Shown here in pieces: positions 4,772-12,099 of a stretch of DNA of 26,593 nt. The position numbers and the translations under genes are program-made. The notes below the pieces were generated by a model, which saw only the letters and a list, made by a program, of their open reading frames with translations, had not been told where the DNA came from and searched no databases. The stretch comes from a virus (lineage: Duplodnaviria > Caudoviricetes), in the IMG/VR virus record IMGVR_UViG_3300030372_000761, positions 1 to 26,593 of that record. One strand, 5' to 3'. Position 1 is the first letter of the stretch. Each line of letters begins with the position of its first letter.

Positions 4772-5500
4772 TCATAATTCCATAGGACAAATAACAGGTA
4801 GCCTACCTGAATCTAAAATGACAGCACAACCTAATACAGGTTTAGCGGTATGGAACTTAGCGTAAGAATATGCGAATGATTTATAGTCTATACCACAAGG
4901 AACTTGAACGCCATATTTTAAATCATTGAGGGAAGCTGTGTATATTGCAAAAGCCTCAGTATGTATATGCCCCTGTACCATAGACATCCCCCAATTTTGA
5001 ACACGCCTCATAATAGCCTTTCCACTACAACCTGTTCCGTGTACATATAATACATTATCGTGTACAAACTTTTCCTCAAAATTCCAACCAGGACAACCTA
5101 AAACATCATTAAAATCTCTTATCCATCTTTTATCTATACCCCCCTCCTCACATTTCCTATGTACAATTAAATCGTGATTCCCTATAGTGACATCTACATT
5201 TTTAAATGCCCTATTCCAATCTTTCATTTGTTCTATACACATATCTAACTCATACTTAGCTCCGTGTGTTTCAGTATTTGTAGAATGAAAGCTACCAAAA
5301 TGGGAATCTATAATATCTCCTGTTGCCGAAAAAGCGGTACAATTATACAGCTCTGCTATACGCTGACAGTGTTCTAAATATTTTGGATGTGTATAGGGTA
5401 GATGGATGTCTCCAATTACCAACCGATTTACTTTAGGCTTTCTTATATCCTTTAATATAGTAATTTCGTTAGGTTTTAATCTGTACCTATTGTTTCTCAA
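4772..5500 (-). CDS. Calcineurin-like metallophosphoesterase
   Basis: All five metal-binding motifs are present: GDIHLP, GDIID, GNHD, VHG, GHIH. Confidence 0.9.
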   Translation of the reverse strand: MRNNRYRLKPNEITILKDIRKPKVNRLVIGDIHLPYTHPKYLEHCQRIAELYNCTAFSATGDIIDSHFGSFHSTNTETHGAKYELDMCIEQMKDWNRAFKNVDVTIGNHDLIVHRKCEEGGIDKRWIRDFNDVLGCPGWNFEEKFVHDNVLYVHGTGCSGKAIMRRVQNWGMSMVQGHIHTEAFAIYTASLNDLKYGVQVPCGIDYKSFAYSYAKFHTAKPVLGCAVILDSGRLPVICPMEL

Positions 5501-5503
5501 ATT

Positions 5504-5896
5504 TTATTTTTTAAGTTTCTCAACCGATCTTCCACCGAAGTATGCCCCAATAACAGTAATCAGGGTAGTGGTTAATAGGCTTACAAATTCTGGTTTAACA
5601 TTGAAGTCAATACTACCACTATCTATGAATACAAGTAGCATTGTACATACTATTAAAAATATTAACACTATTGGCCGTACATTTTTCGACAAGGTCGAGT
5701 CCGAATTCATATCTGCTTTCCACCTTTCACTAACATTCTTCTCTACCTCTACCTGATGATTTACCATTAATTCTTTAATCTTTCTTTTAGCCTCTAATTT
5801 TTCCTCTTTAGATGTGCTTAGATTGTCTAATACACCCCCTACAGATTCTACTAGCTTATCTGCTCCACCCCCAAAAATTGTTTGTAGTATTTTCAT
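5504..5896 (-). CDS. Holin (GTA-type 3TM holin-like)
   Basis: RWKADMNSD..LSKNVRP, two hydrophobic segments, and AYFGGRSVEK tail. Lies directly after the endolysin. Confidence 0.8.
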   Translation of the reverse strand: MKILQTIFGGGADKLVESVGGVLDNLSTSKEEKLEAKRKIKELMVNHQVEVEKNVSERWKADMNSDSTLSKNVRPIVLIFLIVCTMLLVFIDSGSIDFNVKPEFVSLLTTTLITVIGAYFGGRSVEKLKK

Positions 5897-6360
5897 AATC
5901 CTCTTTCTATTGTATGGTATTTATATTTTGTTCTTCCGTTTTCTTTATACGCTTCAAGTAAACTCTTTCTATTGTGTTCGTGGTTATAGCTAATATGAAT
6001 CCAACTAAACTCAAACTCATTTATCATTTGGTCGAAAGGCAAACCTAACTCTATAACCTTATCCCAAATAGCCTTATTATCCATTACTCCATCTACTCTA
6101 AATTGTAAATCCGCTGCCTGTCCTTTACAATGTTGGCTTCGTTTAGAGCCTTTTATGAGCTTATTTAGGCTTTCTGAACGATAACCACTTGTGATTCTAA
6201 TTGGTTTATTTAAACCCTCTCTAAGTGGCTGTAGAACAAACTTAACTAATAGTTGTATATTTCGTATGTGTTCAGCGTTTGGGGAATTGTCTATATCATT
6301 TCTAATTGCTGTTACACTTTTAGTAAATTCTTGTAGTGTAAAGTTCTTTGATAAAATCAT
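5893..6360 (-). CDS. Endolysin, peptidase M15 family (Zn-dependent)
   Basis: LSKNFTLQEF, ITSGYRS, SQHCKGQAAD and WIHIS Zn-ligand motifs. Confidence 0.9.
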   Translation of the reverse strand: MILSKNFTLQEFTKSVTAIRNDIDNSPNAEHIRNIQLLVKFVLQPLREGLNKPIRITSGYRSESLNKLIKGSKRSQHCKGQAADLQFRVDGVMDNKAIWDKVIELGLPFDQMINEFEFSWIHISYNHEHNRKSLLEAYKENGRTKYKYHTIERGL

Positions 6361-6737
6361 TATCTAAATTTAGAGATTATAATGCTGTCTATTACAGCTT
6401 GAATTTCTTGTTTATCAACATCTATTTTGAACATAAGATTACCTTTAAAACGTTTTATTTCTTCGGTCTTGTTGAAAACTATTATCGTGGGTAATACTTT
6501 AATCTTGTAAGATTCTGCTAAGTCAGGATTGTCCTCTATACATACTCTGTACTTCCTACAGTCTTTAAGGCTGCTTAAGAAATAGCATTTGTTACTGTCG
6601 TTCCAATCAGCCCAAAACTCAACTACTATAGGCTCTGTGGACATTTGAGCCTCCTTGAGTTCAGCTTTGTCAATAAGCGATTGGCTAAAACATTGATAAG
6701 GTACTACCCACAATAATATGTAAAAAAGGTATCTCAT
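6360..6737 (-). CDS. Exported thioredoxin-fold protein lacking CXXC
   Basis: Signal peptide ending CFS|Q; VVEFWADWNDSN in place of VDFWAxWCxxC; conserved cis-Pro region KIKVLPTIIVF. Confidence 0.75.
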   Translation of the reverse strand: MRYLFYILLWVVPYQCFSQSLIDKAELKEAQMSTEPIVVEFWADWNDSNKCYFLSSLKDCRKYRVCIEDNPDLAESYKIKVLPTIIVFNKTEEIKRFKGNLMFKIDVDKQEIQAVIDSIIISKFR

Positions 6738-7024
6738 TTAAGCTCATATACTCTCTCCTCTATCTTCTCAACCTGCGTTTCTATTTTATCTAATTTCTCT
6801 GCATTTCCCATCACAGTAGTCGATATTAGCTCCAATTTCAAGTCTAATTCCTGTCTTGTTATTTCAGGATCAGGGATTTCTACTTTAGGTAGTTCCTTTG
6901 CTGCTTCTATTTCCATACTGAGTGAGTAATACATACCAATAAAACTTGATGCTAAAACCACAATTCCAACAATAGATTTTATGGAGAGTAAAAACTTGCT
7001 ATCCTCTGAGATCTCTTTCGCCAT
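6734..7024 (-). CDS. Membrane-anchored coiled-coil protein (96 aa)
   Basis: One TM helix (SIVGIVVLASSFIGMYYSL), a Pro-rich linker and a C-terminal heptad coiled coil. Confidence 0.7.
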   Translation of the reverse strand: MAKEISEDSKFLLSIKSIVGIVVLASSFIGMYYSLSMEIEAAKELPKVEIPDPEITRQELDLKLELISTTVMGNAEKLDKIETQVEKIEERVYELK

Positions 7025-7027
7025 AGT

Positions 7028-7213
7028 TTAACACTTTTTACAGTTATTGTCAGCAATACCTTGTCCAATAATTAGTGCTACTGTAGTGATTACTAAAGTA
7101 TTCATTTTAGTATCGCTAATTCCAAAACTGTCAGAAAATAATATTAACATAACAGTTACAAAACCATACCAAAATTTTCTTGATTTAATAAATTTTAAGA
7201 TTAATTCTTTCAT
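7028..7213 (-). CDS. Small two-TM holin-like membrane protein (61 aa)
   Basis: KSRKFW motif followed by two hydrophobic helices and ..IIGQGIAD. Confidence 0.55.
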   Translation of the reverse strand: MKELILKFIKSRKFWYGFVTVMLILFSDSFGISDTKMNTLVITTVALIIGQGIADNNCKKC

Positions 7214-7216
7214 TTT

Positions 7217-7702
7217 TTATTTTATTTTAAAGTTAATTTTTCCATTCTCTATATATACATTTTCTCTTTTGTATATCTCCTTTCCATTTAAATTATATAT
7301 TTTATTTTCGTTTTTCGTTTTTTGCAGTAGCTCTAAAATACCTGTATTTCCACAAGGTAATCCTGTAGCACAATCAATATATTCAGTAATATATAAAGTG
7401 TCTATAATAGGGATTTCTATATATACAGTATCGCAAGGCACATAGTCATATACAGCACAATCTTCTAAAGTTGTAGGTACTGCATCTGCCTCATCTGATC
7501 CATCTACACAGTCTAACCAACCATCGTTAAGATAATAGAGATTATTATAGCCATTAGGTACACAACCATTAGGAGAATACTGTGTCCAATTAGCTTCATC
7601 ATTACCACAATAGAATCCGTTTTGCTCAACGCATAATTCACAATTCGTTTGACTAAATCCATAACTACATATAAATACAAATAACAAAAATAATTTTCTC
7701 AT
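7217..7702 (-). CDS. Exported Cys-rich protein with LDL-receptor class A-like motif and T9SS-like C-terminal tail
   Basis: Signal peptide ending GFS|Q; FYC...GCVP...LNDGWLDCVDGSDE; C-terminus KIYNLNGKEIYKRENVYIENGKINFKIK. Confidence 0.65.
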   Translation of the reverse strand: MRKLFLLFVFICSYGFSQTNCELCVEQNGFYCGNDEANWTQYSPNGCVPNGYNNLYYLNDGWLDCVDGSDEADAVPTTLEDCAVYDYVPCDTVYIEIPIIDTLYITEYIDCATGLPCGNTGILELLQKTKNENKIYNLNGKEIYKRENVYIENGKINFKIK

Positions 7703-7703
7703 A

Positions 7704-8738
7704 CTAAAATATTAAATAATTAAACCCAAATTTAAACTCCTGTATAGGCTTTTCCCAATACTCTAAATAAGTTCCCTCTACAAATACACCTAAATTCTTT
7801 GTAATTCTCCAACCTGCTACCAATCCAAAATCAACATCAGTAGAAACGCCCTCATAATCGTAAGAATAATCATCTAATCCATAATGAAAAGGCATTACAT
7901 TTAACCATCCGTGAATCCAATATTTATCACTATAGTAATAGTAAGCCGTTCCAATAACCACAGAAAGCTCTGTAGCGCTTCCTAATGAGCTTAATTGCTC
8001 TCGGTTATACTGAGCTATAGCAGAGCCAAAATAGTGCTTAAAAAACTCATCATTTGAAGTTGCTATTAATTCTCCATCATTAAACCAATGATGACTACCC
8101 ATTACAAATTGAGTTGAATATCCAAAATCTTCTGCTAATTCTTGAAAGGCACTCTCTCCACTTTGCCAAAAATCTTCTATTGGCATATTGTTTAAGTAGA
8201 CAGGATGATTTCTTCCAACAGCTCCAATAGTAAAATCAAAAGCTCCTTTATTCACTCTAAACCTTGTGTCAAAAGATATGTATTCTAAATCTCTACTCTC
8301 ATCATTTTTTGCCTGTATTTTAGTAACAAAACTATTACCTAAGTATCTGAGCCAAAAATCTCTATTAGTGTATGTTTCACTACGATTACGAATAAAAGAA
8401 TAATTAAACAAATACTCCCAACCATTATTATTACCAATGGTAGTATTATCTCCAACGCTTTTTTCATTACCATAATACCAAGTTGTGAGCTTCTGCTCAT
8501 AATTGAATCTTGCAATTTTCCTGATTCCGATTGTAAAGTTGTAGTCATAAGGATTGATTTGAGTTGTTTCTTCATAACCTTTATTAACAGCTATATAATC
8601 TTGATCCTCTACCATACTTGTATTAATACTTCCTGAAGAATAAAAAGTAGCATACTTAAAAAACTGAGCATTACAAGTTCCTAATCCTAATACAAAAACT
8701 ATTAATAAAAAGTATATATGTGTTTGATTTATTTTCAT
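7704..8738 (-). CDS. Putative outer-membrane beta-barrel protein (344 aa; likely start 8738 rather than 8762)
   Basis: Signal peptide MKINQTHIYFLLIVFVLGLGTCNA|Q; aromatic-rich amphipathic strands (DFGLVAGWRITKNLGVFVEGTY); C-terminal beta-signal-like EFKFGFNYLIF ending in Phe. Confidence 0.65.
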   Translation of the reverse strand: MKINQTHIYFLLIVFVLGLGTCNAQFFKYATFYSSGSINTSMVEDQDYIAVNKGYEETTQINPYDYNFTIGIRKIARFNYEQKLTTWYYGNEKSVGDNTTIGNNNGWEYLFNYSFIRNRSETYTNRDFWLRYLGNSFVTKIQAKNDESRDLEYISFDTRFRVNKGAFDFTIGAVGRNHPVYLNNMPIEDFWQSGESAFQELAEDFGYSTQFVMGSHHWFNDGELIATSNDEFFKHYFGSAIAQYNREQLSSLGSATELSVVIGTAYYYYSDKYWIHGWLNVMPFHYGLDDYSYDYEGVSTDVDFGLVAGWRITKNLGVFVEGTYLEYWEKPIQEFKFGFNYLIF

Positions 8739-8739
8739 A

Positions 8740-9270
8740 TTATAAAACTTTTGTATAAGCATAGGTTACATAAACATCAGCACTAAAGCCACCATTAAAA
8801 GCTGCTGATGAATATATTTGAAAAGGTTTATTTAATAAAGATACTTTACAACTACCTGAAGCTGCAGGCTCAGGAGAAAAACAAAATGAAGCGTCAGTAG
8901 TAACGCCATTCATAAAACGCCTATAACTATACCAATAATTAGTAGCCTCAGAGCTATCATAACTAAATACTAAATTTGCTGCTGCTGAATCTGTAGCTGA
9001 AGCATAAGTAGTTAAAATTGTAACTTGATATACAGTAATCATATATCCACTTAAAGCCCCTACTAAGGTTTTAGGCGTAGAATCTAAAGCCTGAAATTCT
9101 GCATTACTAACAGAAATTTTATCTGTTTGCATTAAGTATTTAAAATCCATCTTCTTGCTCGTTCCCTGAGCTGACCCAGAGGTATCTGAGCTGTCCACAA
9201 TCATTAAGATATCATTTGTTCCTGCCTGTTGCTCGTAAGCCTGTTTGTCTGTTAGTTTTTGGTTTGCCAT
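8740..9270 (-). CDS. Putative virion structural protein (fibre/decoration-like)
   Basis: N-terminus KLTD...DILMIVDSSDTSGSAQGTSKK resembles phage fibre attachment motifs; S/T/A-rich beta-type sequence. Confidence 0.5.
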   Translation of the reverse strand: MANQKLTDKQAYEQQAGTNDILMIVDSSDTSGSAQGTSKKMDFKYLMQTDKISVSNAEFQALDSTPKTLVGALSGYMITVYQVTILTTYASATDSAAANLVFSYDSSEATNYWYSYRRFMNGVTTDASFCFSPEPAASGSCKVSLLNKPFQIYSSAAFNGGFSADVYVTYAYTKVL

Positions 9271-9921: not shown

Positions 9922-12099
9922 TTATTTTACTCCTGGATAATGTCCTTGATTAGGCATATTTACAGGAGCTATTTTACTATCTTCTAATCCTTTTGGTTTT
10001 CTAACATAGCTTTTAGGTATGCTACTTACTTTTTTATAATCATCATCTAAACTTTGACCATCTTTTAACTCAGTTCCTTTTTTAAGTCTATATAATACTT
10101 CATTCCATTTATGTCTGCAATAAACACCACCTTTAAACTTAAACAAATCATAAGACCTACCTTTATGTCCTAATTGTTTGTTTACACCATCTCTACTTGC
10201 TATATCTATATCCTCTATTCTATAAACAAAACCACCTCTACTTAATCTCATCATATTTTCACAAAATGGTCGTGATTTATTTCCTGTTTTTTTAGGCTTT
10301 CTTGATCCTACTGCATACTTAAATCGTACTCTATAATAAGACTTATCTAAATAACTAAATTTATCTTCATTACTTTTAATTTCATTTACTGCAAAATCTT
10401 CTCTTTTTTGTATAAATCTATCTGCCCATTCTTCATAGTCATCTCCTGTTCCTTGCTCTCTCTCATCTACTACTTCCCACTCATCTGTATTTATTTGCTC
10501 TCCCTCTAAGTTGTTTAATATAATATCAAATTGGTCATCAGAAAGCTCTGTTAATTCTTCTACATTTTCTATTTCTTTAACTTTTCTTTTAGCCCAATCA
10601 AAACCGCCTTCTCCTCCCCAAAGTAACCACGCTATTTTACCTGCACTTGGATAACCTTTATCTCCTTTTTTAAAACCCTCTCCATTTTTTATTGACTTTT
10701 CTTGTCTGCTAAAAAAAGAGTACATTCTTTTAATAGTTTCAATAGATAGATTTTTTCCATTCATTATATCTCTTGCTCTTGCTACACCAACTTCAGTACC
10801 ACCTCTGCCAAATTCTTTTCGCAGTTCAAGACCTTTCTTAGCCTCTCTCATCATTTGTTTAGTTGGTTTTCTATCTATATCATCCAAAGACTTAAATTCT
10901 TTTTTTATAGGCTCTCCTGTATCTATTCCCTCTTTCTCTTGGTCATCTTCACTAACTTTAGCTACTGTTTCAATATCAATAAAATCAGCAGGTTTAAGCG
11001 ATTTAAAGTATAAATCAAGGTTTATATCACAAATAGTAAAAATAGCCTGTAAGCCCTCTAAAAGTGTATTCTGAAAGGGTTTGATGACAGTATTTGAAAA
11101 AAGTGAAAATGAATCTCTAAGCTCATCAGCATTATTACCAAAGCCACTACCATCTCCCTTTACTCCAAATAATAAAGGACTTGTAACTCTATGTCCTGTA
11201 AGTACCTTTTGTGTAGTTTCTGTAGATAAGAATTGATAGCTATCAGAATTGTCATTAGCATTAATAGGAACTATCTCAGGGGCTGTGTCTTTTCCATCAT
11301 TAAAAGTTATAAGAATCTTTCCTGCATTTCCTGATCCTCCAAACTTAGAATTTATCTGTCTTTCTATAGTTCTTCTTTCCTCTCTTGTAGGTACTCCATT
11401 AGCGAAGTTTACAGCCATACTAGGAAACATACCTGATTTTATATTAGATAAGTGAAATTGAGCAATCTCCATATCTAACTGAATGTAAGAAGTAGAGCCT
11501 TGATAGTCAGGTAGTGAATAATAATAACTACCAGGAGAATAATCTTTGATACACAATACTTGACTTGCACTTGTTCTGTCCTTTTCATCAAACGCTTTAT
11601 ATGTTCTTGGTTTGTGCTTTCTAGTATTTGTCCAATCTGCTGAATAATAATACTCATTTACATTACCATAACCATCAGTTTTTCCACTTCTTATATATTG
11701 TGCAGGTATATGATACATCTCTACAATCTTAGTTCTTGGCTTGTTCCATATCGTATTTACATAACACATACCAAACAATTTTAGATCAAAAGCTAAACAT
11801 TTTAATAAATCTTTTTGCGAATGTCCTAGTAAAGATGTAAGCCTTAGCCATTGTTCTTTGTGTTCTTCACTATCTTGTTTATCAGTAGCATCTAATCCCT
11901 CTCCATAAATCATAGCTGAAACGCCTTTAATAATAGCATTGTTGATACTACTACCATTGTATAATTCAAGTAGATATTGAGGGTACATATTATCTGTACC
12001 GAATTGAATCCAATCTTTACTTGCTGTTTCAGTAACAGCAGGTAGATTAAACTCTGCTAAATGTATTACTGATATTTCTGTGTTATTTTTCTTTTTCAT
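9922..12099 (-). CDS. Portal protein with C-terminal accessory domains
   Basis: Portal motifs WIQFGTDNMYPQYL, DLKLFG, YYSLPDY, GSGNAGK, HRVTSPLLFG and VIKPFQ in the first ~375 aa, followed by a ~350-aa extension. Confidence 0.85.
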   Translation of the reverse strand: MKKKNNTEISVIHLAEFNLPAVTETASKDWIQFGTDNMYPQYLLELYNGSSINNAIIKGVSAMIYGEGLDATDKQDSEEHKEQWLRLTSLLGHSQKDLLKCLAFDLKLFGMCYVNTIWNKPRTKIVEMYHIPAQYIRSGKTDGYGNVNEYYYSADWTNTRKHKPRTYKAFDEKDRTSASQVLCIKDYSPGSYYYSLPDYQGSTSYIQLDMEIAQFHLSNIKSGMFPSMAVNFANGVPTREERRTIERQINSKFGGSGNAGKILITFNDGKDTAPEIVPINANDNSDSYQFLSTETTQKVLTGHRVTSPLLFGVKGDGSGFGNNADELRDSFSLFSNTVIKPFQNTLLEGLQAIFTICDINLDLYFKSLKPADFIDIETVAKVSEDDQEKEGIDTGEPIKKEFKSLDDIDRKPTKQMMREAKKGLELRKEFGRGGTEVGVARARDIMNGKNLSIETIKRMYSFFSRQEKSIKNGEGFKKGDKGYPSAGKIAWLLWGGEGGFDWAKRKVKEIENVEELTELSDDQFDIILNNLEGEQINTDEWEVVDEREQGTGDDYEEWADRFIQKREDFAVNEIKSNEDKFSYLDKSYYRVRFKYAVGSRKPKKTGNKSRPFCENMMRLSRGGFVYRIEDIDIASRDGVNKQLGHKGRSYDLFKFKGGVYCRHKWNEVLYRLKKGTELKDGQSLDDDYKKVSSIPKSYVRKPKGLEDSKIAPVNMPNQGHYPGVK

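Follow-up and report, generated by a model that had tools for sequence, protein, structure and literature searches.

The DNA analysed here, called the window, is a stretch of 26,593 nucleotides comprising positions 1 to 26,593 of IMGVR_UViG_3300030372_000761, a 26.6-kb virus record with a completeness of 91% (CheckV). Genes on its minus strand are arranged in the order terminase, virion genes and portal, leading to an M15 endolysin, a holin with three transmembrane (TM) helices and a phosphoesterase. Directly upstream of the endolysin gene lies a run of five open reading frames (ORFs). This work concerns three of them, which encode a predicted outer-membrane beta-barrel (core 1), a predicted inner-membrane coil protein (core 2) and a predicted periplasmic thioredoxin-fold protein (core 3), and the two accessory genes that lie between the first and second of these.

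Read along the minus strand, the run consists of the barrel gene (7704..8738; 344 aa), the gene of an exported, acidic and Cys-rich LDLa-like protein (7217..7702; 161 aa), that of a protein with two hydrophobic peaks (7028..7213; 61 aa), the coil gene (6734..7024; 96 aa) and the thioredoxin gene (6360..6737; 125 aa). Consecutive spacings are 1, 3, 3 and -4 nt, followed by -1 nt to the endolysin gene and -4 nt to the holin gene, in keeping with the tight coupling described in an earlier note on this DNA. The only telling family matches among the five proteins are that of the thioredoxin to PF00085 and a weak holin match of the 61-aa protein.

Signal peptides and TM helices were called by sequence inspection and hydropathy. 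Three signal peptides followed by Gln had been claimed, and the junctions can be read in the window: CNA before Q25 in the barrel, GFS before Q18 in the LDLa protein and CFS before Q19 in the thioredoxin. The Gln is present in all 25 LDLa rows and all 76 thioredoxin rows, and [AGS]Q occurs within residues 13-36 in 124 of 126 barrels; the lower count for the barrel Gln by alignment column (17/126) is read as artefactual and put down to the uneven N-terminal end of the alignment. Counterparts of the window DUF6712 gene, endolysin, holin and phosphoesterase occur in the same order in P12024L, a cultured Nonlabens phage, and the host of the window phage is therefore likely to be a marine bacterium of the Bacteroidota. 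The Q-rule of Bacteroidota signal peptides, as outlined in the part of the source available (PMC5837995), agrees with such a host.

Distribution of the barrel-coil-thioredoxin core

Loci were fetched with barrel, LDLa and thioredoxin queries, taking at most the best 80 matches per scan, and the sample is skewed to close relatives. The 297 barrel loci were reduced to 110 non-redundant loci; 19 of these extend less than 4.5 kb downstream and were left out, which leaves 91. The resulting set, which takes in loci fetched by the LDLa and thioredoxin queries, contains the one-TM coil gene in 90 loci and the thioredoxin gene in 90, with the two adjacent in 88. Among barrel-anchored metagenome loci (not dereplicated), both genes are present in 28 of 29. 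The order barrel, LDLa, small gene, one-TM gene, thioredoxin is kept throughout the first 29 loci, wherever the contig is long enough to show it.

The LDLa gene is present in 55 of the 91 loci and a two-TM gene in 56. As the coil and thioredoxin genes accompany the barrel in 90 of 91 loci and the other genes do so in fewer, the conserved unit is the three-gene core. Thus, of the five-gene module put forward in the earlier note, co-inheritance stands, as does its description as an uncharacterised, lysis-linked envelope module, and a fixed unit of five genes is rejected in favour of a three-gene core with two swappable slots.

The window's upstream neighbour genes are retained in just 29-30 of the 91 loci. 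This movement of the unit between unrelated backbones, together with the conserved-Gln signal peptides and the membrane folds, makes it very improbable that the five proteins are ordinary virion components or a chance run of late genes, even though they do come after the structural genes in the late operon.

Phages with this barrel family span 29-114 kb. The core is found in phages of 29-30 kb, in G004, an 89-kb phage of another layout with ORFs of 4,100-4,500 aa, which may be crAss-like to judge by that layout, and in the T4-like contig G201:C32. The latter (L400, L415) is a 43-kb phage contig in a bacterial genome bin that carries the whole module along with genes for tail tube, baseplate hub, UvsX, helicase, ribonucleotide reductase and family B polymerase, and further genes that presumably belong to the queuosine pathway. 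In G314 and G322, the coil-thioredoxin pair lies several kb upstream of the barrel gene in the same genome, the two genes being still coupled to each other.

A partial scan of IMG/VR yielded 552 barrel matches, from which about 790 stretches are estimated, and about 2,400 barrel matches are estimated for metagenomes. The barrel was not matched in GTDB genomes by peptide patterns or in 50,697 GenBank phages by tblastn; when a profile was run against 301 genomes of a single order, two contained it. One cellular copy, in the Flavobacteriales-order genome G069 (G069:C35; L399:9379-10593), is a lone 404-aa barrel among housekeeping genes; it groups within the phage sequences, has a long branch and is devoid of the terminal aromatic residue. 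The hosts of the barrel family are likely to be uncultured marine Flavobacteriales. Overall, the sequences point to a real and widespread core that is architecturally unlike any matched system and whose function we infer from context.

Predicted properties of the core proteins

The barrel protein begins at the ATG at 8738 (344 aa); an in-frame ATG at 8762 would give 352 aa, and relatives mostly begin at the 8738 position. It has a signal peptidase I (SPI)-type peptide and a C-terminal Phe. The peptide contains a Cys that occurs in about half of the family (66 of 124 members), and it is therefore treated as SPI-type. In two loci (L226 and L248), the barrel was called in two pieces, perhaps because of a frameshift or an assembly error.

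The proposal that this protein is a beta-barrel is borne out by two AlphaFold models, built with 91 and 126 sequences (pLDDT 72.8 and 84.5), both with 12 long strands, and by the top fold matches, which are outer-membrane barrels. Fold searches, run on the first model (pLDDT 72.8), gave NanC and FapF as the top Foldseek matches, and CymA, OmpG, NanC and Tsx as VIA matches at Z 10.2-11.0. These matches are generic, with a TM-score by query of at most 0.33 and an identity of 6-11%. The sole close structure is A0A516LKJ4, an unnamed viral protein (TM 0.76, 29% identity), and the ESM Atlas neighbours are viral hypothetical clusters throughout. Homology searching gave 267 homologues, and no Pfam, PHROG or NCBIfam match was found for the barrel. 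A sequence search of the PDB returned only a 41-residue lysozyme match (E 0.0012), which was dismissed as chance.

Counting of the strands back from the C-terminal Phe, on which the sidedness of the barrel is based, would place a 74-aa helical insertion (residues 180-253) outside the cell and a 31-aa loop (residues 75-105) on the periplasm side. Conservation is similar in the insertion, the loop and the strands (majority fractions 0.62, 0.70 and 0.68, respectively), and 7 of the 31 loop positions are at least 90% conserved. The intra-barrel covarying pair Tyr80-His276, at a rank of about 31, only hints that the loop might fold into the barrel lumen.

The model shares with the porins NanC/KdgM, CymA, OmpG and Tsx an outer-membrane barrel fold, an alternating strand pattern and a polar face towards the lumen; Arg, Glu, Trp and Tyr residues on the inner side of its strands are invariant. 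One reading is that the barrel works as a solute channel, or as an enzyme that modifies outer-membrane lipids, and is regulated by the other two proteins. The best fold matches are indeed specific porins (NanC, CymA, Tsx and KdgM), with OMPLA lower in both lists, but the similarity to NanC/KdgM, CymA, OmpG and Tsx is generic (Z 9-11, root-mean-square deviation 4.5-5.9, identity 6-11%), the window protein adds the 74-aa outer domain and the 31-aa loop, and no transport genes were identified beside the barrel among the neighbours scanned. A channel or enzyme is thus improbable.

Phage-made barrels with signal peptides are known, as exemplified by lambda Lom and 1,603 outer membrane proteins of huge phages, which in the available text include 12-stranded types with envelope-gene neighbours (bioRxiv 10.64898/2026.10.24.761521). 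In that text the barrels are tied mostly to transport genes, and the words thioredoxin, T9SS, spanin and holin do not occur in it (bioRxiv 10.64898/2026.10.24.761521). Unlike those proteins, the window barrel belongs to a family of 29-114 kb phages that matches no Pfam or PHROG family.

The coil protein is a predicted type II inner-membrane protein with a TM helix at about residues 17-33, as judged by hydropathy and column conservation. The TM helix is followed by a Pro-containing linker and a heptad-patterned C-terminal part (63 aa), which is an i-spanin-like topology. Lys16, before the TM helix, is conserved in 75 of 76 rows and, with Glu7, marks a conserved short N-terminal segment; no Cys is found past the TM helix in any of the 76. 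Five loci (L240, L242, L288, L291 and L293) have a second gene, of 108 aa, that matches the coil profile and lies between the cargo and endolysin genes.

The thioredoxin gene overlaps the coil gene by 4 nt in the window. Its product matches PF00085 at 29.8 bits, above the cut-off, and PDB thioredoxins with E values down to 6.5e-9. The active-site position is occupied by WADWN (WxxWN) in place of CXXC, and a CxxC anywhere is seen in 1 of 76 rows, which upholds the prediction of a CXXC-less thioredoxin. Pro83 at the cis-Pro position and Gln19 are conserved in 76 of 76 rows, and a single Cys (Cys60) in 74 of 76. The protein would therefore have a thioredoxin fold and, for want of CXXC, fall outside the redox-active thioredoxins. 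Covariation on 158 paired triads was underpowered (effective depth 44-91), and its top inter-protein pairs include topologically impossible ones.

Exchangeable slots and type IX secretion

The first slot holds exported cargo. The LDLa protein consists of an LDLa-like motif, a linker of variable length and a tail of about 45 aa, and has a Sec signal peptide by inspection. Its length ranges in relatives from 148 to 258 aa, the variable part being a linker of acidic, strand-like repeats; L089 has a copy that stops before the tail. The LDLa assignment given earlier is tentative: the window protein has no Pfam match, PF00057 is matched weakly by 10 of 25 relatives (best E 7e-4), and the matches to VLDLR in the PDB have E values of 0.03-0.15, with an alignment that covers the C-terminal motif only.

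A second cargo, an unrelated exported protein of 169-202 aa whose core resembles uncultured Flavobacteriales proteins, is often found 3' of the thioredoxin gene where LDLa is missing. The LDLa protein is present in 55 of the 91 loci, the second cargo in 19 and neither in 17; the two never occur together, and the Fisher P of 5e-10 for this exclusion is inflated by shared descent. The tails of the two cargoes are homologous (HHalign 93.7%). In L580:69-587 (G318), a 172-aa exported protein with a short tail follows the thioredoxin, and its best match is to neither the LDLa nor the second-cargo profile.

The earlier note had likened the tail of the LDLa protein to the C-terminal domain (CTD) of type IX secretion system (T9SS) cargo. 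Tail profiles had no match under E 0.05 among 475 host ORFs from 56 loci. A whole-genome search with a joint tail profile covered five genomes of uncultured Flavobacteriales and gave 11 matches, in three of them, to host-protein C-termini; most of these proteins have signal-peptide-like starts, and SprA is encoded in all three of the host-like genomes with tail matches. TIGR04183 and PF18962 are matched by none of the 25 LDLa rows at E 0.1 and by none of the 11 host proteins with a similar tail. The tail is thus shared with secreted host proteins and does not reach the T9SS CTD models; in Porphyromonas, the type A CTD is described as 67-108 aa in the portion of the source available (PMC11285876). 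Three large phages (G201, G314 and G322) have a canonical type A T9SS cargo of 994-1388 aa directly upstream of the barrel, with TIGR04183 scores of 45.8-53.6 bits (cut-off 23). We read the slot as one for optional T9SS-type cargo, the export of the short-tailed forms being predicted from sequence.

Variable CTD cargo of Cryophage (PMC7468147) and Q-rule exported proteins of unassigned function in Porphyromonas phages (PMC10367356) are on record. The available text of both sources makes no mention of a barrel-coil-thioredoxin core, (PMC7468147; PMC10367356); the window tail is short and below the CTD models.

One possible role is remodelling of the cell surface. The phage would use the barrel as a surface platform or as a private shuttle, either to display T9SS-type cargo or to hide a host receptor, and so guard against superinfection or against progeny being lost on cell debris. 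The coil and thioredoxin would serve to assemble the barrel or to tether it, and the linkage with lysis genes would be no more than a consequence of late transcription. Tailed cargo in 74 of 91 loci, of two unrelated and mutually exclusive kinds with homologous tails, the canonical type A cargo right before the barrel in three large phages, SprA in the host-like genomes and the conserved extracellular domain all speak for this, and precedents exist in phage T9SS cargo (PMC7468147) and in the blocking of LamB by lambda Lom (as cited in the available text of bioRxiv 10.64898/2026.10.24.761521). It is nonetheless a rather unlikely role: in 17 of 91 loci the core lacks a neighbouring cargo, the short tail of the LDLa protein misses both CTD models in 25 of 25 rows, and the link to three hydrolase families is tighter than display requires. 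The barrel is unlikely to be PorV: the PorV chain 6h3i_F scored Z 8.3, lower than barrels unrelated to it, the model shows 12 strands, and no NCBIfam or Pfam match was found. The T9SS shuttle barrels PorV and SprF/PorP have 14 strands.

The second slot, filled in the window by the 61-aa protein, is filled in 56 of 91 loci by three families (23, 31 and 2 loci). The 61-aa protein matches the holin family phrog_9987 weakly (E 5.7e-4) and is likely to be a holin or holin partner.

Some variation is seen in neighbouring genes. The 176-aa gene upstream of the barrel (8740-9270, minus strand) is hypervariable, with 37-69% identity in close relatives in which its flanking genes are 82-97% identical; it perhaps encodes a host-recognition virion protein. 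The metallophosphoesterase gene (4772-5500, minus strand) exists in two swapped versions, L006 being 96% identical to the window and most close relatives about 40%. The portal gene (9922-12099, minus strand) encodes 725 aa, complete copies in relatives encode 602-749 aa, and residues 407-521, which match phrog_2859, appear to be an optional insert.

Lysis linkage, spanins and possible roles

The M15 peptidase endolysin gene (5893..6360, minus strand; PF08291 E 1e-16, phrog_894 endolysin E 2e-40) overlaps the thioredoxin gene by 1 nt and is followed by the gene of a GTA-type holin with three TM helices (5504..5896, minus strand; phrog_3427 holin E 1e-29, PF11351 E 1e-4, below cut-off). A hydrolase-type gene lies within 4.5 kb in 83 of 91 loci, namely M15 in 56, a 205-aa family that matches the endolysin phrog_33083 (E 1e-17) in 15 and DUF5675 (PF18925) in 12 (e.g., L104, L169, L172, L222, L266, L297, L298 and L301), and two types are never found together. 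As DUF5675 never occurs within 4.5 kb of an M15 or 205-aa endolysin, which it replaces, this mutual exclusion suggests that it is a wall hydrolase. A fourth type, a peptidoglycan-binding amidase directly after the thioredoxin, is seen in G201:C32. Counting holins as well, 87 of 91 loci have a hydrolase-type or holin gene within 4.5 kb.

In a search anchored on related holins, the core was within 6 kb in 7 of 76 distinct loci, many records being fragments of larger phages. Of 24 long holin-anchored records searched whole, 11 contained the barrel; it was present in 7 of the 8 records whose completeness is 70% or more, and all 8 records with the coil had it. The core is thus common in this phage group and does not always adjoin the holin. 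A promoter scan was at chance level (30 found, 30 expected).

The closest likeness is to two-component spanins such as lambda Rz/Rz1, in which, as described in the part of the source available, a type II inner-membrane coiled coil is encoded in the lysis cassette by a gene that overlaps that of an exported partner; the coil topology and the -4 overlap in the window match i-spanin/o-spanin pairs (PMC6139136). The coil has the features of an i-spanin by sequence (an N-terminal TM helix, an N-in/C-out orientation and a helical periplasmic part), and its location among lysis genes in 87 of 91 loci is that of a spanin. Unlike Rz/Rz1, the window partner is an SPI-type thioredoxin fold and not a Pro-rich lipoprotein; it has Gln19 in 76 of 76 rows and no conserved lipobox, and so is no o-spanin. 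The outer-membrane member would be an integral 12-stranded barrel, the coil has no Cys past its TM helix, and no spanin PHROG or Pfam match was found among the core proteins. Unimolecular spanins such as T1 gp11 and the phiKT gp28 disruptin act at the outer membrane without Rz/Rz1, according to the available text (bioRxiv 10.1101/515445). Here, no lipoprotein with a C-terminal TM helix and no cationic peptide was identified, and three proteins would occupy three compartments. In its best reading, therefore, the core would work like a spanin and yet fall outside the class, the lipoprotein being missing.

Given the i-spanin topology of the coil and a gene overlap with its partner like that of Rz with Rz1, the core is tentatively proposed, at somewhat less than even likelihood, to form a bridge across the periplasm that would substitute for a lipoprotein spanin in the outer-membrane step of lysis. 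Its genes are coupled to one another and to those of the endolysin and holin. The barrel and the thioredoxin are predicted to be exported by Sec/SPI with an N-terminal Gln, and the coil protein to remain in the inner membrane, N-in/C-out. The redox-dead thioredoxin may act as an adaptor that docks the coiled coil to the long, conserved periplasm-side loop of the barrel. After the holin and endolysin have cleared the wall, the bridge would draw the membranes together or tear the outer one. The LDLa protein would be an optional passenger, likely exported to the surface, and the 61-aa protein likely acts on the holin side. A trans-envelope lysis complex is the simplest reading, as coil, adaptor and barrel are co-inherited beside changing endolysins.

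Several findings weigh against such a bridge. The periplasmic part of the coil, at 63 aa, is short for crossing the periplasm by our own estimate. One locus (L311) has the barrel without coil or thioredoxin, the G069 barrel stands without a coil, and 4 of 91 loci lack both a hydrolase and a holin within 4.5 kb. DUF5675 gave a single weak Tlde1 match and none to the 205-aa family, its endolysin role being deduced from exclusion. Tailed cargo is frequent, 11 of the 74 positions of the outward domain are at least 90% conserved, beyond the needs of a plain anchor, and a charged and aromatic lumen would be superfluous in one. G201:C32 encodes a second TM-coil with a weak Rz-like match (E 5.9e-5), and a small Pro-rich lipoprotein (63-66 aa) lies just upstream of the barrel at L048:4278-4478 and L089:7747-7938. 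Finally, 69 of 76 distinct related holins have no core within 6 kb and no adjoining lipoprotein either, and cultured P12024L, with the same DUF6712-M15-holin-phosphoesterase backbone, has neither the module nor a convincing lipoprotein that could be an o-spanin.

The last two points bear on the earlier suggestion that an o-spanin is missing. A lipobox scan that recovered lambda Rz1 and Bor as controls found no separate lipoprotein in the window or in the complete relatives G001 and G002, only the signal-peptide Cys of the barrel itself, and no convincing one in G005. The absence as such is upheld for the window; as core-less related phages also lack an o-spanin, it is not distinctive of the module, and the anti-correlation with canonical spanins that had been expected was not found. 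In the portion of a spanin survey available, 91 of 677 phages have no recognisable spanin (PMC6139136), and unimolecular spanins are annotated in some cultured flavobacterial phages, as stated in the available text (PMC8776804). L448 also has a small Pro-rich lipoprotein, near the barrel or holin; such proteins are o-spanin-like in composition.

As a lysis bridge leaves the outward domain, the lumen and the cargo unexplained, surface remodelling and sensing for lysis timing are both kept under consideration. By analogy with lysis inhibition in T4, the outer domain might sense an adsorbing phage, the cargo or a Ca2+-bound ligand, with the thioredoxin and coil relaying the signal to the holin to delay or trigger lysis. 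This would account for the lysis linkage along with the conserved outer domain and periplasm-side loop, and the conserved N-terminal segment of the coil (Glu7, Lys16) and the pairing of one two-TM family with the holin in 43 of the 69 holin loci that lack the core are in line with it. The holin can be many kb from the core in larger phages, and the outer-membrane step would be left without explanation, so that timing control of this kind is judged unlikely.

Returning to the bridge, barrels, T9SS cargo and Q-rule proteins have each been described for phages in the sources available, and the three-part core appears to be new: no description of it was found in open-licence PMC and bioRxiv papers. 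With more reserve than for the bridge itself, the core could be seen as a spanin of a third class. It would be a fusogen of three parts, fixed to the outer membrane through an integral barrel and not through lipid, and common to unrelated groups of marine Flavobacteriales phages; its barrel would also face outward and might let a phage cargo exported by T9SS, or an outside cue, gate the burst. The core bears on how phages without recognisable spanins pass the outer membrane, a question that becomes directly testable with its three small named genes, its exchangeable cargo slot and, as a control, cultured, module-less P12024L. If surface remodelling or sensing should prove right, the core would be a phage-built device for surface display or sensing tied to type IX secretion. 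If the bridge is real, it would represent an undescribed way to break the outer membrane, carried by many uncultured ocean viruses of Flavobacteria-like bacteria.

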